From Actinomycetes bacterium (GTDB lineage Bacteria; Actinomycetota; Actinomycetes; JAHEKZ01): a stretch of DNA of 64,000 nucleotides. The first letter of the stretch is position 1. Each line of letters opens with the position of its first letter. The notes below the pieces were generated by a model. It was given only the letters and a program-made list of their open reading frames with translations, did not search any database and had not been told where the DNA came from. The position numbers and the translations under genes were made by a program. Shown here piece by piece: positions 6,769 through 56,813 of the stretch. Location: the NCBI GenBank assembly GCA_024644345.1, contig JAHELE010000001.1:18659-82658 (forward strand), written 5' to 3'.

Positions 6769-6828
6769 AGAGTGCTCTCTCGGCAGAAGGCCGAGAAAAC
6801 CTAAGCAACTAGCGGCTGACCTGCGGTT

Positions 6829-7896
6829 TTACCGAATCCAGCCCACCACGACGACGTTGGGACGAACCGTCGCGTCGCGCGCGCGCAGACGGAGGTCGCC
6901 GCCTTTGCCGATCCGCACGACGGCAACAGTCTCCCGGGACGTGCGGGACGGGACGACCAGATCTGCCGACCCAGGCTCAGACGCCCCCCGCGGCCACATC
7001 ATGAGTCGACTCTGCTTCTTGCCTGCGCTCCCAGTGAGCTGGACGAGAACGGCGCGGGCATCGCTCGGGACACCGGCGCGTCCGCGGACGCTGACAGTCC
7101 TGGCGTCGCCTTTGCCGAGGGTCGCCCCCTTCTTGAGCAACGCGCGCGGAGCGACCGGGTGAACCGAGCCCGGTCCACCGGCCGTCACGTACCCGGCGAC
7201 GTCGAACGCCACCGAGCCGGCTCGATCCGCCGCCACCCGGATGCCGCCGCCGGCACCTAGCGGCACAACCACCTGAGAGACGCTGCCGCTTCCGCGGGGA
7301 CGTCGCCAGCTCGGGACCGCCGGCTTCTCGGCTCCACCCGGCCATGCCCATACCGCACCCACTGACGACTTCGCCGTGCGTCGAATCGCGAGCACAACGG
7401 CCTTGGCGTCGTCAGGCACGCCGGCACGCCCCGCCACATCGACCCCCACTGGTGTCGGGCCGACCGACAGCGGGCTGGCCACCCCCAACGCAGTGCGGCG
7501 CACCGGTGTGAGCTCACCCCCGGCACCATCGGTGGTGATGTAGCCGGCTACCGAGGCCTTCAGCGCAACCGCCCCTGCGGAGTTCCGGAAGCGAACCCCG
7601 CCACCGGGGCCCACCCGGACGACCACAAAGGCACGGGCCGTGCCGCTCTGCTTCAGCGAGACGGCTTGCGCGCCGGCGCCGGTGACCCGGTCGGGGCTGA
7701 CGGTGATCCGCGTCCCCGCGCTGGCACACACCGCTTCCACCGACAACGCGACCGCGGTGACGCCGCTCTGCGGCACACCCGCTCGACCCAGCACCTGGAC
7801 GTCCAGACGTCGGCCTGGCCCCAGCAGGAGACGACCCTTGATGCCCTTGCCGGACGCCGTCGACAGCAGGGTGCGGGCACGCTGGGGCACGTAGGT
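6829..7896 (-). repeat. three tandem ~110-aa C-terminal repeat modules inside the amidase CDS
   Basis: Units contain ...GRAGVP(Q/D/S)(S/D)A(K/R)AV(A/V)L...(W/V)(P/R)..G.....V(A/V)(G/V)(Y/W)(I/V). Confidence 0.5.
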
Positions 7897-9468
7897 CCCG
7901 GCCGGTGCCTTGTTCAGAGACGCCGTGGTCGAGGTCGACGACCGCCCGCCGACTCCCACGAGGACCGATCGCTCGAACGGCCAGGCACTGCTTCCGTTCC
8001 CCGAGCTGGTCAACGTCATGCGATACCGACCGGGCGAGGCGAGTTGGCCTTTCTCGTCGCGTCCGCGCCACACCGCCCGGATTGGATCACCGGGTGCCGC
8101 CGTGCCGGTGAGGCGCCGAACCAGGTCGCCGCTGCAGAAGTCGCGCACCGTCAGCGCCCAGTTCTGCTGTTGAGTGACCCGGGCCTCGGCGGCAATCGCG
8201 ACATCAGACCCCGCCGGCACACTGCGGGTCGACAGGGTCGGCTCGATCAGACTTGATCCCATGTAGCCCTTGGCGAGCCGTCGGATCTTGGGCAGTCGCT
8301 GGTAGAGGTTGTCCCCTGGGCAGGCAGTCAGCTGCGAGTCCCGATGCCCCGAGATCACCTTGAACCTGACCTTGCGGCCCGGGGAGTACTTCGACGAGCC
8401 CACCTCCGCCGTCAGCACCTTCTTGCCGAACGGGTCACGGTGATAGCGCGACAACCGGTACGCGAGAACCTTGGCGATTCCGCGCACCATGGCGTCCGAT
8501 GCGGGAGCCGTCTGGAAGTTCCCCATCGCCACCACTGCGAGTGTGTCGGTGTTGAACCCACCCGATGCCGCTGACCGCACCGGCTTGGTGATGCTGCCCG
8601 CTCGACCCTCGTAGATGGTCCCGTACTTGTCGACCAGGAAGTTGTAGCCCATGTCGGCGTACTTCAGCGTGTTCACGTAGTAGCTGTAGAGCCCGCGCAC
8701 GACGGCTGGACTCTCGCTACGCGAGTAGTTGTTGCTGCCAGCGGTGTGGTGGACGAAGGCCACCTTGAAGGTGTCGCTGTTCTCCAGATTCTTGTCACGC
8801 AGTGACTCGTCGGCGCCCCACTCGGCCCGTGTGACGATGGGCGGTCGCTCGGTGGCGGCGGTAGCTGTTGAGCCACTCCATCCGCCGGTCACCGCCGCGT
8901 CGGCGTCCGAGGTACCCGGCTCGATCAGGTCGACCCGGACGTCGGATGGTTGGGCGTCGCCCACCGCGTCGACACGGACCTGCACAGCATCGGAGTCACC
9001 AGCCCAGTAGGGAACAGTGCCGAAGCGCCCGTTGGGTGAGGGCTCAGTGCCACTGTCAACGCTCGTTGGCACCTCGAACCAGTCGGTCCACGTACCGTCG
9101 GTGCGCGTCCGGGCAGTGACCAGGACCGTTCCGTCGCCGCTCGGGGCGGCGCCCTTCCACGTGACACCCAGCATCCGGAAGGCGTCGGTCTCCAGGGGCT
9201 CCGACACCACGACGGGGGGTCGAGCAGCGGCCTTGGCTGCCGACGACCGGCTGGTGATCTTGCGCCAAATCGGCTCCAACGTGTCGGGGACTGGCGCAGC
9301 GGCCAGTGCCGCGCGATCAACTCCGACTAGCGGCACGGACTGCACCGCGGCGGCGACCGGGTGCGGGGCCGCGAGCGACACGGTGAATGCCGGTGCCACG
9401 ACAACGGTGGGGATGACAAGAACGGCGGCGAACAACGCACCAGACGGTGCCGGACGGGGGAAACGCAC
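6829..9468 (-). CDS. N-acetylmuramoyl-L-alanine amidase (PGRP/Amidase_2 domain) with three C-terminal ~110-aa repeats
   Basis: Amidase_2/PGRP zinc-site motifs are present (TRAEWGADESLR...FVHHTAGSNNY...VISGHRDSQLTACPGDNLY). Signal/TM segment (ALFAAVLVIPTVVVAPAFTVSLAA). The GTG start at 9468 is preceded by GGAGAGG. The ORF-track start at 9528 is an alternative. C-terminal repeats end ...AGYITTDG / ...AGYVTAGG / ...VVVGWIR. Confidence 0.8.
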   Translation of the reverse strand: MRFPRPAPSGALFAAVLVIPTVVVAPAFTVSLAAPHPVAAAVQSVPLVGVDRAALAAAPVPDTLEPIWRKITSRSSAAKAAARPPVVVSEPLETDAFRMLGVTWKGAAPSGDGTVLVTARTRTDGTWTDWFEVPTSVDSGTEPSPNGRFGTVPYWAGDSDAVQVRVDAVGDAQPSDVRVDLIEPGTSDADAAVTGGWSGSTATAATERPPIVTRAEWGADESLRDKNLENSDTFKVAFVHHTAGSNNYSRSESPAVVRGLYSYYVNTLKYADMGYNFLVDKYGTIYEGRAGSITKPVRSAASGGFNTDTLAVVAMGNFQTAPASDAMVRGIAKVLAYRLSRYHRDPFGKKVLTAEVGSSKYSPGRKVRFKVISGHRDSQLTACPGDNLYQRLPKIRRLAKGYMGSSLIEPTLSTRSVPAGSDVAIAAEARVTQQQNWALTVRDFCSGDLVRRLTGTAAPGDPIRAVWRGRDEKGQLASPGRYRMTLTSSGNGSSAWPFERSVLVGVGGRSSTSTTASLNKAPAGTYVPQRARTLLSTASGKGIKGRLLLGPGRRLDVQVLGRAGVPQSGVTAVALSVEAVCASAGTRITVSPDRVTGAGAQAVSLKQSGTARAFVVVRVGPGGGVRFRNSAGAVALKASVAGYITTDGAGGELTPVRRTALGVASPLSVGPTPVGVDVAGRAGVPDDAKAVVLAIRRTAKSSVGAVWAWPGGAEKPAVPSWRRPRGSGSVSQVVVPLGAGGGIRVAADRAGSVAFDVAGYVTAGGPGSVHPVAPRALLKKGATLGKGDARTVSVRGRAGVPSDARAVLVQLTGSAGKKQSRLMMWPRGASEPGSADLVVPSRTSRETVAVVRIGKGGDLRLRARDATVRPNVVVVGWIR

Positions 9469-9575
9469 AGTAAGCCTCTCCGGGGGAAGTCGGTGGTCCG
9501 ATGGGAACAAGGCGTTCCCTGGTGCCATCGGCCGGGTGCAGACCCGGCTGGAGACGAGTCCCTACCCTAGCTCGC

Positions 9576-10408: not shown

Positions 10409-11848
10409 ATGACGCACACCGAACGGCCGGAGTCGGCTGCCTCGGGGCACCCCCGGATGCGCCGGACGCTCAGGTGGCTCGCCGTGATCGTGGTGCTGCT
10501 GCTGGTTGCCGGCGGGGCCACCGGCTTCTACCTCTACCAGCGTTTTGAGGGGAACATCGGCCAGGTCGACGTCTTCACGACCGACATCCTGGGCACCGAC
10601 CGACCGACCAAGGCAGAGCCGGTCGACAACCAGGCGGAACCCCTGAACATCCTGGTCATGGGCTCGGACACCAGAGCCGGGCAGGGCAGGGGCTACGGAC
10701 CTGAGGCAGAGATCACCGGCGCGCGGTCCGACACCACGCTGCTCGTCCACCTCCCGGCCGACCGCCAAAGCGCTCTGGTCGTGAGCATCCCTCGCGACAC
10801 CGTGCTCGACGTTCCGTCGTGCAAGACGCAGAACGGACCATCCACCCCGTACACGGACCGCTTCAACTCTGCGTTCTCCACCGGCGGGCCAGGCTGCACG
10901 ATCAAGACCGTGGAGCAGAACACCGGCGTCTTCATCGACCACTTCGTCATCGTGGACTTCTCCGGGTTCAACGACATCGTCGACGCCCTCGGTGGAGTCG
11001 ATGTGTGCCTTCCCGAGGCAGTTGTCGAGCCCAAGAGCGGGCTGGACCTTCCCGCCGGCACCAGCACCGTGACGGGCGACCAGGCGTTGGCGTTCGTGCG
11101 GGTGCGCGCGATCGGAACCGGAAGTGACATCGACCGGATCGATCGGCAGCAGGCCTTTCTGTCGTCCTTGATCAACAAGGCCAAGAGCTCCGGCACACTC
11201 CTCAACCCCGTCAAACTCGTGCGTTTTCTAGAGGCGGCGACCAAGTCGCTGACGACCGACCCCGCGCTGGCCAACCTCAACGAGATGCGGCGGATCGCCC
11301 AAGACGTCCGAGGGATCCCGCCCAAGGACATCACCTTCGTCACCACTCCGTGGCTGGTGAACCCCGACGACCCCAACACCGTTGTCTGGAACGAGAAGAA
11401 GACCGACGCCCTCTGGTCGGCCATCAGCAACGACGAGACCTATCCCCCCGCTCCCCCTGAGCCGACCACCATCGACGGCAAGCCACTGACCGTGCTCCCG
11501 AGCGCGGTTCCGCTACGGGTGCTGAACGGCAGTGGCGTGAGCGGGGCGGCCACCACAGCGGCTACCGAGCTCAAGGCGAAGGGCTACTCGACGATCGGGG
11601 TTGGCGATGCCGAAAGCCAGAACTTCATCTCGACGGTGATCCGCTACGACGAGGCCGGCGCTGACGCCGCCCGCACCGTGGCGGCATCCATCCCCGGGGC
11701 CGCTCGGGTGCTTCGGCCGGGGCTGGGGACGACGGTCGAGGTCGTGGTGGGTGATGACTGGCCAGGCGCCACACGGGTGGTCGTCAAGAAGCCCCCGAGC
11801 GTTACCGTCCGGCAAGCGACCGACAACATCTGCAAGATTCCCGGCTAA
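10409..11848 (+). CDS. LytR-CpsA-Psr (LCP) family cell-wall polymer ligase with C-terminal LytR_C domain
   Basis: N-terminal TM segment (LAVIVVLLLVAGGATGFYLY). LCP core motifs (LNILVMGSDTRAG...RSDTTLLVHL...SIPRDT...GFNDIVDALGGVDV). GAGGA RBS before the ATG. Confidence 0.85.
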   Translation: MTHTERPESAASGHPRMRRTLRWLAVIVVLLLVAGGATGFYLYQRFEGNIGQVDVFTTDILGTDRPTKAEPVDNQAEPLNILVMGSDTRAGQGRGYGPEAEITGARSDTTLLVHLPADRQSALVVSIPRDTVLDVPSCKTQNGPSTPYTDRFNSAFSTGGPGCTIKTVEQNTGVFIDHFVIVDFSGFNDIVDALGGVDVCLPEAVVEPKSGLDLPAGTSTVTGDQALAFVRVRAIGTGSDIDRIDRQQAFLSSLINKAKSSGTLLNPVKLVRFLEAATKSLTTDPALANLNEMRRIAQDVRGIPPKDITFVTTPWLVNPDDPNTVVWNEKKTDALWSAISNDETYPPAPPEPTTIDGKPLTVLPSAVPLRVLNGSGVSGAATTAATELKAKGYSTIGVGDAESQNFISTVIRYDEAGADAARTVAASIPGAARVLRPGLGTTVEVVVGDDWPGATRVVVKKPPSVTVRQATDNICKIPG

Positions 11849-15635: not shown

Positions 15636-15742
15636 GTCAGTGTGTGGCTCCCCTACCCTCAAGTCATCGTGCCGCGGGAACCGCAACGGCTCTCACCACG
15701 TCTTACCCGCGACCCCGACCGAGCCCAGGAGACCCACAACAG

Positions 15743-17170
15743 ATGAGCGCCGCCCTTCCCCCGGAGCTCTCACCCCGCGCAGCTGGCGGTCCGCCGTCCC
15801 CGGCCAAGCGTCGGTGGGTGACGCGGGTCACGACCGCACTCGCCGCAGTGGTGTTCCTCACGAGCACCGGTGGCTGGGTGATGGCGACGTACTACGACGT
15901 CAAGCTCGCCCGAATTCCCGGCCTGTCGGGCCTCAGCGGGGACAGCACTGGCCCCCTCACCATCTTGATCGTCGGATCGGACAGCCGCGAGGGCCTGAGC
16001 CTGGCCGAGGCCAGGAAGCTGGGGACGGGCACGGCGGCAAACAGCTCGACGGGGCAGCGGTCCGACACGATGATGCTGTTGCACATCGCCGGCGACCGGA
16101 AGAGCGCCACCGTCGTCAGCCTCCCGCGTGACTCCTACGTCACGATCCCGGCCCACACCGACAGCGCCGGCAAGAAGCAGCCTGCCAGCAAGAACAAGCT
16201 CAATGCCGCGTACGCCCTCGGCGGCGCACCGTTGCTCATCGACACCGTCAAGGCCGAGACCGGACTCACCATCGACCACTACGTCGAGGTCGGATTCGCT
16301 GGGGTCGTGAACATGGTCGATGCGCTCGGCGGGGTCGACGTCTGCGTGCCAAACGCCGTCGACGACTGGCGCAGTGGCTTGAAACTGCCGGCAGGCAAGT
16401 CGCATGTCGACGGGCTGATGGGGCTCTCGTACGTGCGAGCCCGCTACATCGACCCCACCGCAGACATCGGACGTATGCAGCGCCAGCAGCGCTTCCTCGG
16501 GTCGATGTTCCAAGAGGCGACGACCGCACAGGTGCTGCTCAACCCGGTCAAGCTCAATGCGTTCCTGGCTGCGGCGCTCGACTCGGTGACTGTCGACGAC
16601 GGCATGTCACGCGACATGCTGCTCGAGCTCGCCGGCGAGATCCAAGGCCTGACCCCGAAGGACATCCGGTTCCTCACGGTCCCCTTGTCCGACGTGAACC
16701 TGGCCACACCTGTCGGCAGCGCAGTGGAGTGGGACCAGAAGAAGGCCGCACTCGTCTTCGGCTCGATCGAGAGCGACCAACCCCTGATCAAGGAGAAGAA
16801 GGGGCCGACCGTCCAGGTGGCGCCGGCCGACATCGACGTCCAGGTGCTCAACGGCAGCGAGGTCGACGGGCTGGCCACCACCGCAAGTACTCACTTGGAC
16901 AGGGCGGGGTACACGATCGCGGCTGCCCCCGGCAACGACAAGCGCGGCGATGTGACCTCCACGATCATTAGGTACGACCCGCAGTGGAACACTTCGGCAA
17001 AGACCCTGCAGGCAGCGTTCCCCGACGCCACCCTGGAGGAGGTCTCCGGTCTTGGGTCCACCTTCCAGGTGGTCGTGGGTACCGACTACGTCAAACCATT
17101 GAAGGTTCGCGTGGCCCGCAAGGACAACAAGCTCGGATCGAGTACCGCTGCCGACAGCGTGTGCGGCTGA
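15743..17170 (+). CDS. LytR-CpsA-Psr (LCP) family protein, second paralogue, with LytR_C domain
   Basis: Motifs LTILIVGSDSREG...RSDTMMLLHI...SLPRDS...GFAGVVNMVDALGGVDV. The ATG at 15743 is in frame inside the longer track ORF that starts at 15644. Confidence 0.85.
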   Translation: MSAALPPELSPRAAGGPPSPAKRRWVTRVTTALAAVVFLTSTGGWVMATYYDVKLARIPGLSGLSGDSTGPLTILIVGSDSREGLSLAEARKLGTGTAANSSTGQRSDTMMLLHIAGDRKSATVVSLPRDSYVTIPAHTDSAGKKQPASKNKLNAAYALGGAPLLIDTVKAETGLTIDHYVEVGFAGVVNMVDALGGVDVCVPNAVDDWRSGLKLPAGKSHVDGLMGLSYVRARYIDPTADIGRMQRQQRFLGSMFQEATTAQVLLNPVKLNAFLAAALDSVTVDDGMSRDMLLELAGEIQGLTPKDIRFLTVPLSDVNLATPVGSAVEWDQKKAALVFGSIESDQPLIKEKKGPTVQVAPADIDVQVLNGSEVDGLATTASTHLDRAGYTIAAAPGNDKRGDVTSTIIRYDPQWNTSAKTLQAAFPDATLEEVSGLGSTFQVVVGTDYVKPLKVRVARKDNKLGSSTAADSVCG

Positions 17171-27054: not shown

Positions 27055-27570
27055 TCAGTCGCCTTCCTGCCGGCGCCGCCGGTCATCTTCCTCGTGCAGT
27101 CGGAAGATCTCGCGCTGAATCAGCTCGACATCCGGGACCGAGGCGATCAACAACCGACCGGTCTCACCAGCGGACTCCACGATCAGGTCGCCGCAGCCGA
27201 GCATGCGGTCGACGACCCCGTAGTTGAAGTGGACATCGTTCACCCGGGCGAGGGGCATGTCGCGCCCCTGCCGCGCGACGATTCCAGAACGAATGATGAC
27301 GCGACGGTTGGTCAGGACGTACTGCGACGTCGCCCACTGGATGACCGGTTTGATCACCCAGATCACCAGCAGGACGACTGCCACCGCCAGAAGGACCCAG
27401 CGCGTCCAGCCCCATCCGTCAGGCACCTGTGCGAGCAGGAACACCGTGCCGAAGACCAACAGCACCAGCGCGACCGCCGGAAAGAACAGGATCCGCCAGT
27501 GGGGGCGCATGTCGTAGACGACGGTCTCACCGTCGGTGAGCAGCTTGTCTGGGTAGGCCATGGAGAGCAT
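27055..27570 (-). CDS. bacterial PH-domain (bPH_2/DUF304, YdbS-like) membrane protein
   Basis: Two TM helices (ILFFPAVALVLLVFGTVFLL; VLLAVAVVLLVIWVI) followed by a PH-like domain (YVLTNRRVIIRSGIVARQG). Position resembles Mtb Rv3278c. Confidence 0.7.
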   Translation of the reverse strand: MLSMAYPDKLLTDGETVVYDMRPHWRILFFPAVALVLLVFGTVFLLAQVPDGWGWTRWVLLAVAVVLLVIWVIKPVIQWATSQYVLTNRRVIIRSGIVARQGRDMPLARVNDVHFNYGVVDRMLGCGDLIVESAGETGRLLIASVPDVELIQREIFRLHEEDDRRRRQEGD

Positions 27571-27602: not shown

Positions 27603-28421
27603 TCAGTCCGTCGCCGGACGCAGGTGCACGACATCGGCAGATGCAACTTCGCGCTCGCGGCCGTCAACGCGAAGCACGAGCTCACCACCATCACCCAGGC
27701 GAACCGCCCGCCCCTCGAGCACCGACCCATCCGGCAGGTGAGCGCGCACATCTTCGCCCAGAGTGCTCGAGTGCTGCTCGTAGCTCGATCGCACATCCGC
27801 GGCGTCGCCCACCCAGGCGAAGTACCAGGACTGCCATGCCGAGAGAACCCCGGTCAACAGCCCGGGGCGATCGACGGTACCTCCCGACAGCCGCACCGAC
27901 GTCGCTGTGGCGACCGGAAGCTCGGACCGGGACTGATCGACGTTGATCCCCCACCCGGCGACCACCGCGTTGCCCTGTGGAGTCGGCACGACTTCGCACA
28001 GCACCCCGGACAGCTTGCGGCCACCGACGAGCACGTCGTTCGGCCACTTCAGGGTGGCCGACACCCCCAGTGCCTCAACCGCCTCGACAATCGCCAGCCC
28101 GGTCAGCAGCGGGATCCACCCCCACCGGACCGCGGGCACGTCGGGACGCACCAGCACACTGATCATCACCGATGAGTGCCGAGGCGCGGACCATCCGCGC
28201 TCTCGGCGTCCGCGGCCCGACGTCTGCTCCTCCGCCACAAGCACGGCGCCATGTCCAGCGCCGTCTCTGGCCCGTTGCGCCATCGTCAGGTTCGTCGACT
28301 CGAGCGACTCGACCACGTCGAGGGCGCTCCACATGCTGCGGGGGGTGACGACCTCCTGTCGCAGGGCCACCGCGTCAAGGGCGGTGCGCCCGGTGGGTGC
28401 GCTCGCCCCGCTGTCCGTCAC
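27603..28421 (-). CDS. birA: biotin--[acetyl-CoA-carboxylase] ligase (group I, no DNA-binding domain)
   Basis: Motifs EQTSGRGRRERGWSAP...KWPNDVLVGGRKLSGVL. Located just upstream of the acyl-CoA carboxylase genes, as Mtb Rv3279c. Confidence 0.8.
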   Translation of the reverse strand: MTDSGASAPTGRTALDAVALRQEVVTPRSMWSALDVVESLESTNLTMAQRARDGAGHGAVLVAEEQTSGRGRRERGWSAPRHSSVMISVLVRPDVPAVRWGWIPLLTGLAIVEAVEALGVSATLKWPNDVLVGGRKLSGVLCEVVPTPQGNAVVAGWGINVDQSRSELPVATATSVRLSGGTVDRPGLLTGVLSAWQSWYFAWVGDAADVRSSYEQHSSTLGEDVRAHLPDGSVLEGRAVRLGDGGELVLRVDGREREVASADVVHLRPATD

Positions 28422-28460: not shown

Positions 28461-30113
28461 TCAGCGGCCGTGGAAAGCTTCCAGAGCCGCAATCGCCATG
28501 AGTGACCGGAGTGACAGCTCGTAGTCCCCCATGGGGGCGCTCATCGCATCCCCGATGATCTCCAGCAGCCACGACTGACCCTGCCCATCGGTCACTCCCG
28601 CCATCAGCAGGGTGGACGCCCCGATCCCGTCGAGGACGGCGAGCTCAGCCGGGTCCGTCTCCGCATCACCCGCACCCAGCGACACGACGTTCCCCTTCAG
28701 GGCATGCACTGTCTGCGGATAGCTCGCCAGCGGGTACTCGTTACCGATGTCCGAGCCGATCTCCTCCCCCGGCCGCGACGGGTCCCGGTGGATGGCATGA
28801 CGCACCGTCCGCACCACGCCCTTCTCCGGGTCGGCACGAGAGATCCACCAGCCGAGCGGCTGACATTGTTCGGCGACCTGCTCGGCGACCAGGACCAGTC
28901 GGTCCTCGACACCGCGGTCGCGCGCATCGTCCAGTGCGGTGATCCCCGCCCGCAGCAGCCGAGCGGTGTCTGACAGGTCCCGTCCGCGGAACATCCGGCG
29001 ATCGATCGCCGCGATGGAGGTCTGCGCAGCCTGGTGCCCCGCGACACCCGCCGGCATCCCCCGACCCGCAACGACCGGAACAGTGGCGCGGCCCCGTTTG
29101 GCCCGATACTGGGCGGCGTCGGCAAGACGAAAGAGGCGTCCGGCGGTGTCCACCTCCCCTACGTCGTCGTCGGTGGAGGCCACTCCGCACGAGACGCCTT
29201 CGAGCGGAGAACGAAGAACCAGTCGGCAGAGCTCGGTCGCTGCCTCGACCACCGAGTCGGCGGACACGTCTGGGGCGACGATGCAGAACTCGTCGCCTCC
29301 CAGGCGGGCTGCCATCGAGCCATTGAGCGTCGCGGCCGTGGCGCTGAGCATGGATGCAAAGCGCACCAGTGCGCGGTCCCCTGCCTCATGCCCCTGTTCG
29401 TCGTTGATCCGTTTGAGCCCATTCAGGTCGCACACGACCAGACTCACAGCCGCACCTTCCGATCGGTGCCGGCTCAAGGCGATGTCGAGACTCTCGTCGA
29501 CGGCTCGACGGTTGCCGATCCCGGTGAGCGGATCGGTGTGCGCCATCCGATCGACGTTGTCGAGGTGGTCCGCGGTCGCCAGCGCCGCACCGATCTGGGC
29601 TCCGACCACGAGAGCCAGGTCGACGTCGGACTCCTGAAAGCAGGGCTGGTCGGCGCTGCGGGAGAAGAAGAGTTCGCCCCAGATGCGGCCGTCCAGTGGG
29701 ATGGGGGCTCCCACGCAGCAGTGCTTGTGGAGCGAGTGCAGCAGGGCGACGTCGAACTCATCCTGTCCGTCCTGGTCGACGTTGGCCGACCATCCGGTGA
29801 GCTGGTCGGCCATGACCTGCAGGTGCTGCGAGATGTCCTCGGTATAGATCTCGTCCGTCGGCTCCGACACCTCGTCCGGCCCGAGCTCGCCATGGTTCAG
29901 GAGCACCTGTAGCTGGCCGATGTCGGCCTCCCACCGCGAGATCGACACCGATGCCGCTCCGAGCGCCTCCCTGGCCGAGATGGCAGAGCTCTGCAGCAGC
30001 TCTCTCTGGCTGCCGGCCCACGCCGCTCGGGCGATCTCGGCCAGCGCTCCAAGACGCGTCGCGACATGCTCGCGACGCGCCGGATCAAGGCGTGGCTCAT
30101 GGCCGACGGTCAT
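28461..30113 (-). CDS. GAF-GGDEF-GAF diguanylate cyclase, paralogue 1
   Basis: N-terminal GAF (PIPLDGRIWGELFFSR), GGDEF domain with intact active site (RLGGDEF; LTGIGNRRA), C-terminal GAF-like domain. The ATG at 30113 is preceded by GGGGAGGAGGG. The ORF-track TTG at 30170 is less likely. Confidence 0.8.
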   Translation of the reverse strand: MTVGHEPRLDPARREHVATRLGALAEIARAAWAGSQRELLQSSAISAREALGAASVSISRWEADIGQLQVLLNHGELGPDEVSEPTDEIYTEDISQHLQVMADQLTGWSANVDQDGQDEFDVALLHSLHKHCCVGAPIPLDGRIWGELFFSRSADQPCFQESDVDLALVVGAQIGAALATADHLDNVDRMAHTDPLTGIGNRRAVDESLDIALSRHRSEGAAVSLVVCDLNGLKRINDEQGHEAGDRALVRFASMLSATAATLNGSMAARLGGDEFCIVAPDVSADSVVEAATELCRLVLRSPLEGVSCGVASTDDDVGEVDTAGRLFRLADAAQYRAKRGRATVPVVAGRGMPAGVAGHQAAQTSIAAIDRRMFRGRDLSDTARLLRAGITALDDARDRGVEDRLVLVAEQVAEQCQPLGWWISRADPEKGVVRTVRHAIHRDPSRPGEEIGSDIGNEYPLASYPQTVHALKGNVVSLGAGDAETDPAELAVLDGIGASTLLMAGVTDGQGQSWLLEIIGDAMSAPMGDYELSLRSLMAIAALEAFHGR

Positions 30114-30220
30114 CAATTCCCTCCTCCCCGGTTCTATCGGCCCCCAACGCTCCCTCCCTTGAGGGCTCAAGGGGCTCGGACTGGGGAAGTGAGGTGCCGG
30201 TCAGGAGGCGGTTGGACGCC

Positions 30221-31867
30221 TCAGACGCCGCTCAGGGCGGCAGCCACCAGCACCCGCAGCAGCGTGACGAGGTCGCGCTCAGAGCCACTGAGTGAGTCCG
30301 TGTACACCTCGACCAGCCAGCGATCCCCATGGGCGTCCTCACCCCCGGCGCCGACGACGGCCAACGCAGAGAGGTCATCGAGGATTGCCAGCTCTGCAGA
30401 GTCCGATCCCGGATCGTCGGCCCGCACCGTGAAGGCCCCTCCTCGGAGCGCCTGCTCGGTCGAGGGGTAGTCGGCGACCGAGAATCGCTCACCCACCTCC
30501 GTGGACAGCTCCTGCTGGTTGAGACCGGGGAGTGCTCGATAAATGGCGTACTCGACGGTGGTGACGGCATCGTCCCCGTTGGCCATCCGCGAGAGCCACC
30601 AGCCGACCGCGTCGTGGTGGTGGCAGACGAGGTCTGCCACCAGGCCGAGTTTGGCGCGAGGTGGCTCGCCCGTTGCATCATCCAGCGCCCGAAGTGCCGC
30701 GTCGAGCAGGCGCAGCGGCTCAGGATGTTGCGCGCCCCGCCGTAGGCGCCGGTCGGACGTCGCTGTCGAAGGGGGGACGGCCAAGGTCACCGAAGCCTCG
30801 ACCGGCAACGCACGGCCGGCAACGACCGGGCGATGAGAGCCGGTGCGCTTGGCGCGGTACTGGGCAGCATCGGCCAGCCGGAAGAGCCGCTTGTCGTTGT
30901 CGATGGAACCGATCGCGTCCCCCGTGCTGGCCAGACCGACGGCGACGCCATGTGGCAACTCCCGCCAGGCCCGGGAGCAGACACCTTCGGCGAAGGCAAC
31001 CAGGTCATCGGGTGGACATCCGGCAACCGCGACGGCGAACTCGTCACCACCGAGTCGGGCGAGCATGGCGTCCGGCAACGACCGAGCTCCCTCATCGGCG
31101 AGGATCTGCGCCATCGACCGGAGGACCCGGTCACCGGCGTCATGGCCATGCTGGTCGTTCACGCTCTTGAGGCCGTTGATGTCACAGACCACAAGCCCCA
31201 CAGCGATGCCCTCGTTACGGTGCCGCTCCATCACGTGGTCGAACCACTCCTCGACCGCCAGGCGGTTGGCCAGTCCGGTGAGGGAGTCGGAGTGTGCCTG
31301 GGCCGTCGCCCGGCCCAGGTGCTCGGCGGTGGCGATGGCAGCACCCACCTGTGCGGCGACGGCTACTGCGAAGTCGACGTCGTCGTGGCCGTAGGGCTCT
31401 TGGATCACCGACCTGGTGACGAACAGCTCGCCCCACACCCGACCGTCGAGCGGGATGGGAGCCACGACGCAGCTTCCCTTGCCCAGCTTCTGGACCAGGA
31501 CACTGTAGGAGTCGGAACCGTCCGCCGTCGCCGTGAAGGCGCGCTGCTGCTCCATGACCGTGACGAGGGCTGCGTAGTCCGACATCCGGTAGTACTCGTT
31601 CTCTGGCTGGAGGACCTCCCCCTGCCCCAGAGCGCCATCGTTAAGCACGCAGCGCACGCGCGACTGCTCGGGTTCCCAGATGCTCAGAGAGACCGAGGCG
31701 CCATCGAGTGCCCGCATCGCCGCCAGCGACACCCGGCGCAGGAGGTCAGCACCCTCTGTCGTCGTCGCCACCCGCGCGACGTCGGCGAGCGCTTTGAAGC
31801 GCGCGGAGACCGCCGACTGTGCCGCTGGCACATCCGGACCTGGCCAGCTCGCGGTGTCGATCACCAT
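30221..31867 (-). CDS. GAF-GGDEF-GAF diguanylate cyclase, paralogue 2
   Basis: Same architecture (PIPLDGRVWGELFVTR; RLGGDEFAVAVAG; LTGLANRLA). Strong RBS (AAGGGGGGAGG) before the ATG. Confidence 0.8.
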   Translation of the reverse strand: MVIDTASWPGPDVPAAQSAVSARFKALADVARVATTTEGADLLRRVSLAAMRALDGASVSLSIWEPEQSRVRCVLNDGALGQGEVLQPENEYYRMSDYAALVTVMEQQRAFTATADGSDSYSVLVQKLGKGSCVVAPIPLDGRVWGELFVTRSVIQEPYGHDDVDFAVAVAAQVGAAIATAEHLGRATAQAHSDSLTGLANRLAVEEWFDHVMERHRNEGIAVGLVVCDINGLKSVNDQHGHDAGDRVLRSMAQILADEGARSLPDAMLARLGGDEFAVAVAGCPPDDLVAFAEGVCSRAWRELPHGVAVGLASTGDAIGSIDNDKRLFRLADAAQYRAKRTGSHRPVVAGRALPVEASVTLAVPPSTATSDRRLRRGAQHPEPLRLLDAALRALDDATGEPPRAKLGLVADLVCHHHDAVGWWLSRMANGDDAVTTVEYAIYRALPGLNQQELSTEVGERFSVADYPSTEQALRGGAFTVRADDPGSDSAELAILDDLSALAVVGAGGEDAHGDRWLVEVYTDSLSGSERDLVTLLRVLVAAALSGV

Positions 31868-31925
31868 GCCTCCCCCCTTGAGATCGGAGTGAAGGGGCGG
31901 GGTCTTGAGCCTGCACCTGGTCCGC

Positions 31926-33590
31926 TCAGGAGCGGGTCAGCGGGTGCAGGGCCGCCAGCACCAGCAGGCGGAGAACGCCGGCCAGCTCCTGCCCCAGGGT
32001 GCTCAGCTCGTCCAGAAAGATCTCGACCAGCCAGCTGTCCCCGTACTGGTCGGTGCCCCCCGCGGCGATGACTGCGCTGGCGTCCAATCCGTCGAGGATG
32101 GCCAGTTCCGCAGGGTCCGCCGTCGGGTCGCCGGCTGTCACGGCGTAACCGCCTCCGCCCAGGGCGTACCGAGTCTGCGGGTACGTGTCCAGGGCGAAGC
32201 CCTCACCGAGCTCCGACAGCGGCTCGTCGGCACCGAGCCCAGGCGGCCGGCGGTAGAGCGAGAGGTCGACGGTGTGCAGGGCATCGGACCCCTGCGGGCT
32301 CAGCGATAACCACCAGCCCAAGCCGTCCACATGGTGGGTGAGCAGGTCGGCGACCAGACCAAGGCGCGTCCGGGGAGCCTCGCTAGCCGCCTGGTCGAGC
32401 GCGCGCAGGGCGGCGTCCGACAGCTGACCGAGGCTGGAGCTGTCTCGACCCCGGAAGACCCGACGGTCCGGCGCCAGCAGGTCGTCCTGGTCGCCCAGTG
32501 ACACCGCCAGCTCCGGCGGCAGGGGTCGACCCGCCACCACCGGCACGCGTGACCGGATGCGCTTGGCGCGGTACTGCGCTGCATCGGCCAGACGAAGCAG
32601 CCGAGCCGGGTTCTCGATCGGGCCAACGGCATCGCTGGTCACGACCACGCCGCAGGCGACACCGTGCGGCAGACGCGCCCAGCCGGTTCGGCACACGGTC
32701 TGCACGGCTTCGACGACCCGAGGGGCGTCCTGCCCACTCACGGCCAAACAGAACTCGTCCCCCCCAAGCCGCGCCACGAGCGAGTGCTCGAAGTCACGGG
32801 CGGAGTCGAACAAGATGTGGGCGAGCTGCCGAAGAACGCGGTCACCGGCATCGTGCCCCTGGTCGTCATTGATTCGCTTCAGGCCGTTGAGGTCGAGCAC
32901 CGCCAGGCCGATGGGCTCCTGGTTGTCGCGCCATCTAAGCATCGCAGCATCGAGCCACTGGTCGAGCGCCCGACGATTGGCCAGACCCGTCATCGAGTCG
33001 GTCTGGGCCAGGCGCTCGACGCTCTCCACATGATCGGCGCTTTCCAGCGCAGCACTCACCTGGGCGGCCACTGCCGATACCCAGTCCAGGTCGGCTTCGC
33101 CGAAGGGCTCTCGTTCGGAGTTGCGCGCCACGAAGAGCTCGCCCCACCACTCTCCGGCATAGAGCAGCGGCACACTGATCGAGCTCCGCTTGTCGAGCAG
33201 AATCAGGTAGTCGCGGTCATCTTCGGCAATGGTCGGGTCGTCCAGGCTCAGCACCGATCCGAGGAGGCCATCGGCCATCCCGGCGAGCCATGTGCTCTGG
33301 TCGGCCTCGTACACCTCGTCCTCGGGCTCCTCCTCCTCCCACTCGGCGAGATCGCCCACGTTGAGGACCGCCCGAAGCACCTGACGATCGGGCAGCCACA
33401 CGCCCAGAGAACCCGAATCAGCCTCCGCGGCCCGCATGGCGGCCAGCATGATCTGTTTGGTGGCCTGTGACTTGGGCAGTCCGACTCCCGCGCGGCCGAC
33501 ATCGCTGAGGGCACGGAGGCGCGCCTCACTCCGGTCACGCGCGCGACGCATGACCGCCCGAGAGGTGTCCTCTGCCACCTGATCCACCAT
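31926..33590 (-). CDS. GAF-GGDEF-GAF diguanylate cyclase, paralogue 3
   Basis: Same architecture (VPLLYAGEWWGELFVAR; RLGGDEFCLAVSG; MTGLANRRA). Confidence 0.8.
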   Translation of the reverse strand: MVDQVAEDTSRAVMRRARDRSEARLRALSDVGRAGVGLPKSQATKQIMLAAMRAAEADSGSLGVWLPDRQVLRAVLNVGDLAEWEEEEPEDEVYEADQSTWLAGMADGLLGSVLSLDDPTIAEDDRDYLILLDKRSSISVPLLYAGEWWGELFVARNSEREPFGEADLDWVSAVAAQVSAALESADHVESVERLAQTDSMTGLANRRALDQWLDAAMLRWRDNQEPIGLAVLDLNGLKRINDDQGHDAGDRVLRQLAHILFDSARDFEHSLVARLGGDEFCLAVSGQDAPRVVEAVQTVCRTGWARLPHGVACGVVVTSDAVGPIENPARLLRLADAAQYRAKRIRSRVPVVAGRPLPPELAVSLGDQDDLLAPDRRVFRGRDSSSLGQLSDAALRALDQAASEAPRTRLGLVADLLTHHVDGLGWWLSLSPQGSDALHTVDLSLYRRPPGLGADEPLSELGEGFALDTYPQTRYALGGGGYAVTAGDPTADPAELAILDGLDASAVIAAGGTDQYGDSWLVEIFLDELSTLGQELAGVLRLLVLAALHPLTRS

Positions 33591-33725
33591 CCGCCCTTGT
33601 CCCTCTCACACTCGGCATCGCGACCCCACCACTGAAACACGCCAGCACCGGCTCCCATCGTGTTCCTGCGCGTCGATACGCTGACCGCCACCTGACCAAA
33701 CGTCACCCACGAGCCGGAGCTGAGC

Positions 33726-35354
33726 ATGGCCGCAGATTCCAGTGACTCAACGCCCCAGCCGACGACAGGGTCGGCAGGTGTTGACCTGCACACCACCGCC
33801 GGCAAGCTCGCCCAGCTGCGCCACAAGTACGACGAGGCGGTGCATGCCGGCTCCGAACGGGCCGTCGAGGCCCAGCACGGGCGGGGGAAGCTCACGGCGC
33901 GTGAGCGCGTCGAGACGTTCTTGGACGACGGCTCGTTCGTGGAGTTCGACGAGCTGGCTCGGCACCGCTCACACAACTTCGGTCTTCAGGACAAGCGCCC
34001 GTACGGCGACGGAGTCGTGACCGGGTACGGAACCGTAGACGGCCGACAGGTATTCGTCTTCGCGCAGGACTTCACGGTGTTCGGCGGATCTCTGGGCGAA
34101 GTGTTCGGCGAGAAGATCGTCAAGGTCATGGACATGGCCTTGAAGACCGGCGCGCCCGTCGTCGGCATCAACGACTCGGGTGGGGCCAGGATCCAGGAGG
34201 GCGTCACATCCCTTGCCCAGTACGGTGAGATCTTCTACAGGAACGTGCAGGCCTCGGGCGTCATCCCCCAGATCTCACTGATCATGGGCCCGTGCGCAGG
34301 TGGGGCGGTCTACTCACCGGCAATCACCGACTTCATCATCATGGTCGACAAGACTTCGCACATGTTCATCACCGGCCCCGAAGTGATCAAGACAGTCACC
34401 GGTGAGGACGTCGCGTTCGAAGAGCTCGGCGGAGCCCGGTCGCACCAGGCCAAGAGCGGCGTCGCCCACTTCATGGCCGCCAGCGAGCAGGAGGCACTCG
34501 AGCTGACCCAGCAGCTACTCTCGTTCCTGCCCAGCAACAACCTCGACGAGCCACCCACGTTCGAGTCCGCCTCCACCGACGACGTCACCCCCGACGACCT
34601 CGTTCTCGACACCCTCATCCCCGACTCTGCGAACCAGCCATACGACATGCACCAGGTGATCGAGTCGATCGTCGACGACGGCGACTTCCTCGAGGTCCAG
34701 GCGCTCTTCGCCCCGAACCTGCTGACCGGTTTCGGACGCGTCGAGGGCCGCTCGGTGGGCGTTGTCGCCAACCAACCGATGCAATTCGCCGGAACGCTCG
34801 ACATCGACGCGTCCGAGAAGGCTGCCCGGTTCGTGCGTACCTGTGATGCATTCAACGTTCCTGTGTTGACGCTGGTCGATGTCCCCGGCTTCCTCCCCGG
34901 CACCGACCAGGAGTGGGGCGGCATCATTCGGCGCGGCGCCAAGCTCATCTACGCCTATGCCGAGGCCACCGTTCCGCTGGTCACGATCATCACGCGCAAG
35001 GCATACGGCGGTGCCTACGACGTCATGGGGTCAAAGCACCTCGGCGCCGACATCAACCTCGCCTGGCCCACCGCACAGATCGCGGTCATGGGGGCCCAGG
35101 GCGCGGTGAACATCTTGCACCGTAAAGAGATCCAGGCCGCAACCGAGCGCGGCGACCTGGACGCCACCAGGGCCCAGCTCATCGAGAGCTACGAGGACGC
35201 ACTTCTCAACCCCTACCTGGCCGCCGAACGCGGCTACATCGACGCGGTGATCGAGCCGTCGGCCACCCGGGTGCAGGTGACTCGAGCCCTTCGGATGCTG
35301 CGGACGAAACGGGCGAACCGACCACCCAAGAAGCACGGGAACATCCCGCTGTGA
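33726..35354 (+). CDS. accD5: acyl-CoA carboxylase carboxyltransferase beta subunit (propionyl/acetyl-CoA carboxylase)
   Basis: Carboxyltransferase N and C domains (GGARIQEG...[13 protein letters not shown]...). GGAG RBS. Synteny birA-accD5-accE5-maf-accA3. Confidence 0.9.
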
Positions 35355-35563
35355 GCGAGCCGGAGCCGGACATCACCGTGGTTTCCGGCGACCCCGATCC
35401 CATCGAACTCGCCGCCGTCGTGGCGGTGTTGGCGATGCGCCGCACCGGTGGCGTACCCACGGCTGCGCCGAGGCGATCACTATGGGCCTCACGCTCACGC
35501 CAGGTCCGACCGACGCTGGGCGCCGGTCCGGGTTCGTGGCGTGCATCGACACTCCCACGGTGA
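35351..35563 (+). CDS. accE5: acyl-CoA carboxylase epsilon subunit
   Basis: Small protein ([24 protein letters not shown]). Its GTG overlaps the accD5 stop (GTGA). Typical position immediately after accD5. Confidence 0.6.
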
Positions 35564-54694: not shown

Positions 54695-56739
54695 GTCAGA
54701 CCATGCAGCTCGACCGCCTCTTCCGACCGACGTCCATCGCTGTCGTGGGCGCCACCGACCGCCCCGGCTCGTACGGCAACGCGGCGGTGAGCAACCTCGT
54801 CGCCGCTGGATTCACCGGCCGCTTGGTCGGCGTCCATCCCACCCGGCGCGAGGTCCACGGAGTCGCCTGCGTGCCTTCGCTGGACGAGCTCGGTGGTCCC
54901 GTGGACGCTGTCGTCGTCGCCACCCCCGCCGACACGGTTCCCGATCTGCTGGACACCGCCGGACGCATGGGATGCGGTGGTGCCGTCGTGTTCGCGGCCG
55001 ACTTCGCCGAGACCGGTCGCACGGACCGACAAGAGGCACTGGTCGCCGCGGCCGCACGCCACGACCTGCCGGTGATCGGCCCGAACGGCAACGGGATCGT
55101 GGCGCTGAGCAGCCGCGCGCCCATGTGGGGTGACAAGGTCGTCCCGAAACCAGCCGGCGCCGTGGCTCTCATCACCCAGAGCGGCAACGTCGGCGTGATC
55201 GGGCTTGCCAGCGACCGGGGGATCAGCTGGCACACCGTCGTCAGTGTGGGCAACAGCGCCGTCGTGGACGCCGCCGAGTGCCTCTCCTACCTCGCCGGCG
55301 CCGATGGCGTCCGGTCAGTCGCCCTCTACCTGGAGGGCGATGGGGATGGCGCACGATGGGCGGAGGCCTTCGCACGGTGCGCCGAGAACGACGTTCGGAT
55401 CGCCGTCCTGAAGGCGGGGCGAAGCGCCGCCGGAGCGGTAGCAGGTGGCGCACACACCGCCGCGGTCGCCGGTGACCACCGGATCTTCGCGTCGCTGGTG
55501 GCCGAGGCAGGTGGTGCGTGGTGCCACGACCCGCACGAACTTCTGGAGACCGCCAAGCTGCTGGCGACACCGCGCCCCGCCACGTCCGGTGGTCTCGCGG
55601 TCGTGACGTGTTCCGGTGGGGACTCGGTGATCACTGCGGACGAGGCGGACCGGCTCGACGTCCCGCTCGCCACCTTCTCGCCGGCAACGCAGGCAGCCCT
55701 TGCCGAGCTGTTGCCGGACGGCGTGCAGCCCACCAACCCACTCGACCACACCAACATGCTCTGGGCCGACATTCCGCGTGTTCGGGCGCTCGTCGAGACC
55801 GTGGCATCAGACCCCGGCGTCAACCAGGTTCTCTACGTGCAGGACACCCCACCGGATCTCGACGACAGCGACGCTGCCGAGTGGAAGGCCACCCGTGACG
55901 GAATGGTCACCGCACACATCCCCGGGGTCGGGAAGGCGCTGGCTTCCGGGCTCCCCGAGATGCTCCCCTCACCGGCCGGCCAGTCGTGGGGCGAGCACGG
56001 GGTGACCGCCCTGGCGGGCATTCCTACTGCCCTGGCAGCGCTGCGCGCGCACACCTTGACATCCTGCTCGGCTGAGCACTTGCGGGCGATCGCCACCGCA
56101 ACGGTGCCGACCGCACCAGGCGCCTGGTTCTCCGAGCATGAGGGCAAGGCCCTTTTGGCGTCCCACGGCGTCACTGTTCCGGTCGGGCGAACGGCCGCCT
56201 CGGCCGACGACGCCGTTTCCGCGGCGGCCGAGCTCGAGGGTGCGGTGGCGATGAAGATCAGCCATGCGGAGATCCAGCACAAGACCGACATCGGCGGTGT
56301 GGTTCTTGGCCTCACCGATCCCCAACGCATGCACGTTGCGGCCGAACAGCTCTTGGCACTTCGACCTGACGGCACGGTCTTGGTCGAGCAGATGGCATCG
56401 CCTGGAACGGAGATGCTGGTCTCGGCGACCCGGGACGGTGTCGTCCCAGCGCTCGTCATCGGAACCGGCGGCATCTGGACCGAGCTGATGCAGGACGTCG
56501 TCGTGATCCCCCTCCCGGCCGATGCTGCCCGCATCGGTGACGCACTGCAGACCCTGACGAGCTACCCGTTGCTGGCCGGTGGTCGCGGAAGGACGCCACT
56601 TGCCGTTGATGCACTGTGCGAGCTGGCCGCTGCGGTCGGCAGGGCCCTGCTTGGGGAAGGTCTGACCCTCGTCGAGCTCAATCCAGTGATCGTCACGGAG
56701 ACGTCTGCCGTCGCAGTCGACGCCGTCGTGCGTCGCTAG
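54691..56739 (+). CDS. ADP-forming acyl-CoA synthetase (NDP-forming; CoA-binding + succinyl-CoA-synthetase-like + ATP-grasp domains)
   Basis: SIAVVGATDRPGSYG...VIGPNGNGIV...ITQSGNVG followed by a C-terminal ATP-grasp domain. The TTG at 54691 overlaps the ACAD stop. An alternative ATG lies at 54703. Confidence 0.75.
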   Translation: MSQTMQLDRLFRPTSIAVVGATDRPGSYGNAAVSNLVAAGFTGRLVGVHPTRREVHGVACVPSLDELGGPVDAVVVATPADTVPDLLDTAGRMGCGGAVVFAADFAETGRTDRQEALVAAAARHDLPVIGPNGNGIVALSSRAPMWGDKVVPKPAGAVALITQSGNVGVIGLASDRGISWHTVVSVGNSAVVDAAECLSYLAGADGVRSVALYLEGDGDGARWAEAFARCAENDVRIAVLKAGRSAAGAVAGGAHTAAVAGDHRIFASLVAEAGGAWCHDPHELLETAKLLATPRPATSGGLAVVTCSGGDSVITADEADRLDVPLATFSPATQAALAELLPDGVQPTNPLDHTNMLWADIPRVRALVETVASDPGVNQVLYVQDTPPDLDDSDAAEWKATRDGMVTAHIPGVGKALASGLPEMLPSPAGQSWGEHGVTALAGIPTALAALRAHTLTSCSAEHLRAIATATVPTAPGAWFSEHEGKALLASHGVTVPVGRTAASADDAVSAAAELEGAVAMKISHAEIQHKTDIGGVVLGLTDPQRMHVAAEQLLALRPDGTVLVEQMASPGTEMLVSATRDGVVPALVIGTGGIWTELMQDVVVIPLPADAARIGDALQTLTSYPLLAGGRGRTPLAVDALCELAAAVGRALLGEGLTLVELNPVIVTETSAVAVDAVVRR

Positions 56740-56813
56740 AGGCCGGTGCATCCTCGTCACAGATGCCGGTCGATCGAATGAGAGTTGTCAGTGGTGGATG
56801 GGACTGTGGGCGC

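Follow-up and report, generated by a model that had tools for sequence, protein, structure and literature searches.

In the 64,000-nt stretch of actinomycete contig JAHELE010000001.1 analyzed here (the window), three consecutive minus-strand genes, which we call G1, G2, and G3, lie between birA (biotin-protein ligase) and an accD5-type carboxyltransferase gene and encode proteins of a single architecture: an N-terminal GAF domain, a GGDEF domain, and a C-terminal domain with a GAF fold. Our reading, to which we assign a probability of roughly 0.75, is that they are cytoplasmic sensor diguanylate cyclases (DGCs), catalytically competent and duplicated long ago, from the actinobacterial lineage that includes Streptomyces CdgE. 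A preliminary description of this DNA had already drawn the tandem triplet and its common GAF-GGDEF-(GAF-like) layout; open reading frames (ORFs) and flanking genes agree with the positions (Table 1), and Pfam matches together with AlphaFold2 (AF2) models and Foldseek searches agree with the layout.

GGDEF domains with intact catalytic motifs

The Pfam GGDEF family (PF00990) matches G1 to G3 at about aa 190 to 345 with 90.5 to 100.6 bits (cutoff, 23.8), and TIGR00254 does so with 86.8 to 93.7 bits (cutoff, 37.4); among NCBIfam models, the three proteins matched the generic diguanylate cyclase domain and no named equivalog. RLGGDEF is invariant in all three paralogs, as are D(S/P)(L/M)TG, K234, N237, and D246 (G1 numbering), and the GGDEF, DxLT, and K, N, and D substrate or metal positions are also invariant in 49 homologs. 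Aligned residue for residue with 5euh, a DGC of solved structure, the paralogs conserve DxLT, K, N, D, and RxGG(D/E)EF, and the GGDEF part of the structural model matches active DGC structures with template modeling (TM) scores of 0.75 to 0.81. The preliminary description had called the active site intact and had named missing catalytic residues as the finding that would speak against its account; the motif is complete in every copy, and no such loss appeared at the substrate and metal positions. Together these features predict that G1 to G3 are competent cyclases that make cyclic di-GMP (c-di-GMP).

Many degenerate GGDEF proteins act as receptors or scaffolds. At least one of the paralogs could likewise have ceased to be an enzyme and become a receptor for c-di-GMP or GTP, or a scaffold. 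Speaking for such a change, and against our reading, G2 and G3 do not strictly retain the arginine that, after a conserved AK, corresponds to the GRN arginine; the C-terminal GAF domain and the Arg-rich motif described below have no known role; and CdgE makes two-hybrid contacts with RmdB and sigma-WhiG (PMC13232838). We nonetheless think it very unlikely, given the catalytic positions that are invariant in the paralogs and their 49 homologs, the absence of an I-site for c-di-GMP binding of the kind found in PelD-type receptors, and the activity of a Streptomyces ortholog that carries the same residues (PMC7911125).

Two GAF-fold domains flank the cyclase core

The N-terminal domain (about aa 40 to 180) is recognized by Pfam GAF (PF01590) with 26.9, 34.6, and 37.2 bits across the three paralogs (cutoff, 22.4). 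Its profile retrieved GAF chains from the PDB at an E value of 4e-6, and these were exclusively generic GAF, phytochrome, and DevS sequences; a GAF domain of the cyclic nucleotide (cNMP) type was matched at an E value of only 0.27. The C-terminal ~200 aa (residues ~350 to 550) match no Pfam family at an E value of ≤10 save for one spurious match, and a profile of this region found nothing among PDB sequences at an E value of <0.39. An AF2 model of G2 residues 352 to 548, built with 49 homologs, has a mean per-residue confidence (pLDDT) of 88.7 and a predicted TM score (pTM) of 0.81. Foldseek matched it best to PDB entries for cyanobacteriochrome and phytochrome GAF domains and for the TraR ligand-binding domain, and the top 50 PDB matches had E values of 1e-6 to 1e-5 and query-normalized TM scores (TMq) of 0.44 to 0.62. 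The models thus indicate that the C-terminal ~170 aa form a GAF fold that lacks a sequence-level GAF match, and the "C-terminal GAF-like domain" of the preliminary description proves right at the level of the fold.

The profile of this cryptic GAF domain recovered only 531 clusters among 1.84 billion representatives. It is nearly always C-terminal, in proteins of ~520 to 620 aa, and all sampled variants keep a GAF-GGDEF core ahead of it, while some gain an N-terminal HD-GYP-type HD domain, an EAL domain, or an extra GAF domain. Among distant family members, we observed an HD-GYP-type HD_5 domain at the N terminus of P0186, P0189, P0239, and P0246 and an N-terminal EAL domain in P0218, making these proteins potential bifunctional make-and-break enzymes. 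The order GAF-GGDEF-GAF occurs in no solved structure; over the full length, the closest structural matches were to IsPadC, a phytochrome-linked cyclase, and to Dcsbis, a GAF-GGDEF protein. In the full-length AF2 model of G2 (pLDDT, 88.4), a long continuous helix (H161-193, H195-219) joins the N-terminal GAF domain to the GGDEF domain.

The sensor domains differ among the paralogs more than the catalytic domain does: pairwise identity is 33 to 41% for the N-terminal GAF domain and 38 to 52% for the C-terminal one, versus 52 to 56% for GGDEF. Since the sensors have diverged faster and all three genes have been retained across several lineages, the paralogs most likely receive different inputs rather than being redundant. 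This accords with the earlier suggestion that the three cyclases integrate different small-molecule signals, as far as the inputs go; that the ligands themselves differ is a conjecture drawn from the divergence. The C-terminal GAF domain could be a second sensor, a dimerization module, or a feedback site.

An Arg-rich tail and no canonical I-site

Many GGDEF cyclases carry an RxxD I-site five residues upstream of GGDEF, which is typical of the family and not obligatory for it. The preliminary description had proposed looking for it, and we found none: LNGS (G1), LPDA (G2), and FEHS (G3) replace RxxD, so that the three proteins lack a canonical product inhibition site, and RxxD occurs in 0 of 72 full-length family representatives.

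What the family does share after the GGDEF domain is a tail consisting of PVVAGR, a variable stretch of ~20 residues, and (D/E)RRxFRGR. In G2, the Arg-rich part of this tail (aa 372 to 378; Table 1) is modeled with intermediate confidence as a short helix between the GGDEF and C-terminal GAF domains, and its residues R373, R374, and R377 are invariant in the 49 homologs. The strict motif is kept in 21 of the 72 full-length representatives, all in the closer subfamily, and Streptomyces CdgE-type proteins (382 to 387 aa) stop within 1 to 7 residues of it. CdgE of S. venezuelae is reported to be active and product inhibited (bioRxiv 10.1101/2020.04.24.060822) though it has no RxxD, which makes the Arg-rich tail a candidate for a noncanonical feedback site.

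Membership in the CdgE lineage

At least 91 of 93 Streptomyces genomes encode CdgE (PMC6205966), and CdgE of S. ghanaensis, a 382-aa ortholog of sco4931 with G271/G272 in its active site motif, makes c-di-GMP in vitro (PMC7911125). The Streptomyces member of our family is 382 to 387 aa long with GGDEF at 271 to 274, and we identify it as CdgE because both its length and its GGDEF position match the published protein. CdgE (SCO4931/Vnz_22740/SSFG_02707) resembles the window proteins in its N-terminal GAF domain and active-type GGDEF domain, with 45 to 49% identity over ~60% of G1, and further in its accD5-birA neighborhood, its PVVAGR...(D/E)RRxFRGR tail, and its lack of an RxxD I-site. It differs in ending at the Arg-rich motif after 382 aa, whereas the window proteins gain the ~170-aa GAF-fold domain; in being a single copy downstream of birA and an adenylate cyclase gene (cya), whereas the window has three copies on the opposite side of birA and no neighboring cya; and in being controlled by BldD, MtrA, and BldC, whereas the window genes carry sigma-28-like motifs. 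One-to-one orthology with CdgE does not apply, as the window holds three co-orthologs with an additional C-terminal domain. Synteny across 81 loci and the alignment of the tail motif place G1 to G3, as judged from sequence, within the CdgE lineage.

The synteny comparison used a genome scan with a three-sequence alignment, which returned 80 loci, and tblastn with the window proteins (81 loci). In ~70 other actinomycete loci, which come from Streptomycetaceae, genera of the Catenulisporales type, and many metagenome-assembled genomes (MAGs) and include those of Kitasatospora, Streptacidiphilus, Streptomyces, Yinghuangia, Embleya, Actinospica, and Actinocrinis, a single-copy homolog lies on the opposite (downstream) side of birA. 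The common order is accA3-maf-accD5 on one strand and birA-(bPH)-...-DGC on the other. The triplet had been described as inserted into a conserved birA-accD5 block, and this part of the description fails: the family is an old resident neighbor of these genes. What is peculiar to the window's clade is that the family lies between accD5 and birA and has grown to two or three copies, which to that extent bears out the earlier proposal of a lineage-specific expansion. The clade (loci L001 to L007, L012, L015, and L082 to L084) has one to three cyclase copies between accD5 and birA, and L005, L007, and L084 retain one more behind bPH, its old position.

A class III adenylate cyclase-like gene (PF00211; examples in Table 1) lies between birA/bPH and the DGC gene in 62 of the 81 loci, including those of Streptomyces, and is missing from this locus in the window and its clade. 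The conserved pairing of a cyclic AMP (cAMP) synthase with a GAF-GGDEF protein hints at cAMP-to-c-di-GMP cross talk.

Some relatives of the window's lineage carry a second, divergent AccD-like carboxyltransferase (36 to 41% identical to AccD5) between the cyclase genes and birA (Table 1), in some cases followed by a small ORF; the window does not contain this gene.

Age of the triplication

The triplication is ancient and real. As proposed in the preliminary description, we computed pairwise identities and a phylogeny and compared the locus across related genomes. The paralogs are 40 to 45% identical as protein and 54 to 57% identical as DNA, and direct repeats across the triplet (periods of 1,751 and 1,714 nt) are merely stretches of 60 to 75% identity. 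In a database search, each paralog has separate orthologs at 68 to 93% identity in several MAG lineages labeled Actinomycetes, Actinomycetota, or Candidatus Nanopelagicales, and the three-gene accD5-birA locus recurs in the independent assemblies L001, L003, L007, and L082. The low identity between copies and the separate orthologs of each copy argue for an old duplication and against an assembly artifact, which had been named as a possible undoing of the claim and would call for identical nucleotide sequences. A neighbor-joining tree places the old-position copies basally, followed by G1 and then by G2 with G3. Two points about this tree weigh against the order of events it suggests: its branches carry no support values, and it requires G2 to have been lost several times.

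Tandem genes wedged between two divergently transcribed housekeeping genes could also have arrived recently as a foreign island or have been duplicated by the assembly. To this we give virtually no chance, as the identity values and the synteny already refute it: the copies share just 54 to 57% of their DNA sequence, the same locus occurs in at least four independent assemblies, and the family is a conserved birA neighbor across the class. The G+C content and skew of the triplet also equal those of its flanks, and no mobile-element genes lie nearby.

Conserved bipartite motifs upstream of the cyclase genes

A longer ORF for G1, starting with TTG, reaches position 30170, but the ATG at 30113 is the likelier start because orthologs (68 to 93% identity) begin at the same ATGAC(C/G) after GGAGGAGG. 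This Shine-Dalgarno sequence follows a GCCGATAG box by ~10 nt and is itself followed by the ATG, an arrangement shared by most of ten lineages. All 10 G1-type loci have CTCAAG-N16-(G/T)CCGATA(G/A/C), in which the downstream box is GCCGATAG except in L005 (GCCGATAA) and L007 (TCCGATAC), while the 16-nt spacer and the upstream flank are merely 38 to 39% identical. G2-type genes have CTCAAG-N14-16-(G/C/T)CCGAT, with related motifs upstream of the G2 orthologs in L001 and L003, and G3-type genes have (T/C)TCA(A/G)-N15-16-GCCGA conserved upstream of their orthologs. A relaxed form of the motif (TCAA/TCAG, 14 to 21 nt, CCGAT) was found at 0 of 71 single-copy genes of other lineages. The preliminary description had noted an element, CTCAAGGG(G)GGAG, shared by the short intergenic leaders. 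It is present upstream of G1 and G2, with CAAGGG alone at G3, and it is not simply a ribosome-binding leader, as its CTCAAG is the upstream box of the bipartite motif.

A pair of invariant boxes that keep their distance while the sequence between them varies, and that stand just upstream of a ribosome-binding site, looks like a promoter. Promoters of the sigma-28 (FliA/WhiG) class have GCCGATAA as their -10 consensus and, in actinobacteria, T(A/C)AA or CTCA as their -35 box (PMC8325347, PMC12871210), and the published consensus is T(A/C)AA-N16-GCCGATAA or CTCA-N16-17-GCCGAACT (PMC12871210). Among predicted WhiG targets in Actinomycetota, genes for DGCs and phosphodiesterases are the most widespread (PMC12871210), and in Rubrobacter such genes are mapped targets (PMC8325347). 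The window genes resemble these targets, in which cyclase genes stand behind T(A/C)AA or CTCA, ~16 nt, and GCCGA(TAA) at ≤200 nt from the start; they differ in that their lineage lies outside those studies, in the G1 spacer (+1), and in the imperfect G3 -35 box. The published criteria are an exact T(A/C)AA-N16 or CTCA-N16-17, then NNCGA with ≤1 mismatch to GC, ≤200 nt before the start codon.

Several observations count against assigning the motifs to WhiG. Of the three genes, just G2 satisfies the published criteria (TCAA-N16-TCCGA, one mismatch). The G1 spacer is 1 nt longer than published, despite a 7/8 match to GCCGATAA, and the -35 box of G3 is imperfect. The loose published pattern is also frequent in this GC-rich window (36 matches versus 13 in shuffles), and the strict criteria hold for 6 of 32 clade genes versus 5 of 71 genes elsewhere. 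Because the loose pattern is so common in this DNA, it is phylogenetic conservation that carries the promoter case. We regard the motifs as candidate sigma-28/WhiG-type promoters and put the assignment at close to an even call, leaning slightly against.

The CTCAAG...GCCGATAG pair might instead be bound by a different factor (a repressor or another alternative sigma factor), or might belong to an attenuator or terminator separating cotranscribed genes. In favor of this, G1 has TCAA-N17 or CTCA-N18 where the published spacing is N16(-17), no exact -35 box precedes G3, the short intergenic gaps at the triplet (39 to 107 nt) would allow an operon with birA, and an inverted repeat overlaps the G1 box. 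We find this less likely, since boxes ~20 nt before the start codon with a free spacer are laid out as in a promoter rather than as in a palindromic operator; the sigma-28 class is recognized by its -10 element, GCCGATA(A/G) (PMC8325347, PMC12871210); the hairpin is neither conserved nor unusually stable; and scans of the region for sigma-70 promoters and T-tract terminators found none.

The inverted repeat, CCCTTGAG-GG-CTCAAGGG, is present exactly where it had first been noted (Table 1), with the CTCAAG box of the G1 motif as its right arm, and it is not significant. Perfect inverted repeats with 8-bp arms and a gap of 0 to 10 nt number 52 across the window, and in 8 of these the gap is 2 nt; this one is not kept in orthologous loci, and the RNA fold of the intergenic region is no better than that of shuffles (z = -0.28). 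We therefore rejected the hairpin as a functional element.

Other GAF-GGDEF cyclases

Dcsbis (PA2771; PDB 4zmu) has the same order of GAF domain, helix, and GGDEF domain as the window proteins, and 4zmu is among the best full-length structural matches. Leptospira Lcd1 is a cAMP-activated GAF-GGDEF cyclase with this order too. Both differ from the window proteins in having no C-terminal GAF domain and share ~20% sequence identity with them, and the PDB profile search of the window N-terminal GAF domain gave no support for cAMP binding. The mycobacterial proteins DcpA/MSDGC-1 and Rv1354c are GAF-GGDEF-EAL proteins. They share with G1 to G3 an actinobacterial GAF-GGDEF core plus a third domain, which is an EAL phosphodiesterase in the mycobacterial proteins and a GAF fold in ours.

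Genomic surroundings

As the preliminary description had stated, the window holds no EAL or HD-GYP partner: a domain scan of ~55 ORFs in it found no EAL, HD-GYP, PilZ, or sigma factor gene, so the c-di-GMP-degrading enzymes and effectors must be encoded outside it.

Table 1 Features of the cyclase locus (window coordinates) and of homologous loci (locus coordinates)
Feature	Position	Strand	Description
birA	27603-28421	-	Biotin-protein ligase; Pfam BPL_LplA_LipB; 39 nt downstream of G1
G1	28461-30113	-	550 aa; GAF, GGDEF, C-terminal GAF fold; ORF call, Pfam, orthologs
G1 Arg-rich motif	28983-29003	-	DRRMFRG
G1 GGDEF active-site motif	29286-29300	-	aa 272-276
G1 candidate sigma-28/WhiG-type promoter	30134-30163	-	CTCAAG 30163-30158, 16 nt, GCCGATAG 30141-30134
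Inverted repeat	30156-30173		CCCTTGAG-GG-CTCAAGGG
G2	30221-31867	-	548 aa; N-terminal GAF aa 42-178, GGDEF aa 191-345, C-terminal GAF fold aa ~381-548
G2 predicted C-terminal cryptic GAF-fold domain	30224-30727	-	AF2 and Foldseek; in G1 and G3, the 3' thirds
G2 Arg-rich motif	30734-30754	-	DRRLRRG, linker between GGDEF and C-terminal GAF; homolog alignment
G2 GGDEF active-site motif	31037-31051	-	
G2 candidate sigma-28/WhiG-type promoter	31881-31909	-	CTCAAG 31909-31904, then TCCGATCT 31888-31881
G3	31926-33590	-	554 aa; GAF, GGDEF, C-terminal GAF fold; identical to database protein P0055
G3 Arg-rich motif	~32448-32468	-	DRRVFRG
G3 GGDEF active-site motif	32751-32765	-	
G3 weaker candidate promoter	33609-33637	-	TTTCAG 33637-33632, then GCCGAGTG 33616-33609
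accD5-type carboxyltransferase	33726-35354	+	Pfam Carboxyl_trans, 685 bits; divergent from G3
accE	35351-35560	+	ACC_epsilon match; followed by maf, accA3
Adenylate cyclase-like gene, examples	L022:3293-4270; L037:7624-8853; L073:5828-6922		PF00211
Second AccD-like gene	L005:12482-13915; L007:6960-8465; L012:10736-12277; L083:13553-15070; L084:13479-15035		

In the intergenic region between accD5 and G3, a block of ~30 nt (33655-33690; minus strand GGTCAGGTGGCGGTCAGCGTATCGACGCG) is kept in L001, L003, L004, L006, and L082 while the DNA around it diverges. It has TACGCT on the accD5 strand and is probably the accD5 promoter or leader, or an operator. Beyond birA on the minus strand lie a gene for a membrane protein with a bacterial PH domain (bPH_2; 27055-27570) and then a response regulator/histidine kinase pair; the bPH_2 gene overlaps the response regulator start by ~30 nt, and a small bPH_2 protein gene, with counterparts in most loci, accompanies birA in all lineages examined. 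Farther away, two adjacent minus-strand genes (4087-9528) encode secreted-looking proteins of ~895 aa, one with SpoIID and fn3 matches and the other with Amidase_2, whose long C-terminal regions have no Pfam match and look alike by eye; two LytR-CpsA-Psr genes are near this pair (10409-11845 and 15644-17167). A plus-strand DUF222 ORF (56616-58067), from the family of mycobacterial 13E12-type HNH-endonuclease-associated repeats, lies amid housekeeping genes, and nothing else in the window points to a mobile or repeated element.

A model for the locus and its implications

Helix-coupled register of dimeric sensors is the usual device in GAF-, PAS-, and phytochrome-linked cyclases. In G1 to G3, the N-terminal GAF sensor would act through the long helix to bring two GGDEF domains into register, thereby uniting two GTP molecules, and the GGDEF domain would condense these into c-di-GMP. 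The family appears to have lived in the neighborhood of accA3-maf-accE-accD5 and the divergent birA and, in the window's lineage, to have moved between accD5 and birA. Two duplications would have followed, the first separating G1 from the ancestor of G2 and G3 and the later one separating G2 from G3, and the paralogs would now feed different signals into one c-di-GMP pool. The C-terminal GAF domain and the Arg-rich motif would have the roles proposed for them above. Each gene seems to have kept its own promoter, resembling the sigma-28/WhiG type, which would put three cyclases under a sigma factor that, in other Actinomycetota, c-di-GMP itself controls.

A bolder extension, which we consider unlikely, is that CdgE-type enzymes form a distinct class without an I-site, in which the tail and the cryptic GAF domain would provide control by product or by a second signal, and that three WhiG-driven enzymes together with a c-di-GMP-armed anti-sigma factor would make up a three-input negative-feedback homeostat.

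The locus encodes CdgE-type GAF-GGDEF cyclases with an unannotated C-terminal GAF domain, triplicated in one uncultured lineage, and is not a categorically new system; it overturns no current ideas and sharpens testable hypotheses. CdgE is among the most conserved c-di-GMP enzymes of Streptomyces, and its deletion gives no phenotype. Within a wider actinobacterial family, in which most proteins add the unannotated GAF-fold domain, the Streptomyces protein represents the short form. The I-site is absent family-wide, but the Arg-rich tail is shared, offering a concrete candidate for the product inhibition of CdgE. For a very long time, the gene has kept birA and the acyl coenzyme A carboxylase genes as neighbors, usually along with an adenylate cyclase gene. 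The conserved sigma-28-like motifs tie the three-copy lineage to recently proposed WhiG/c-di-GMP feedback loops, and the lineage itself is a natural experiment in sensor divergence.

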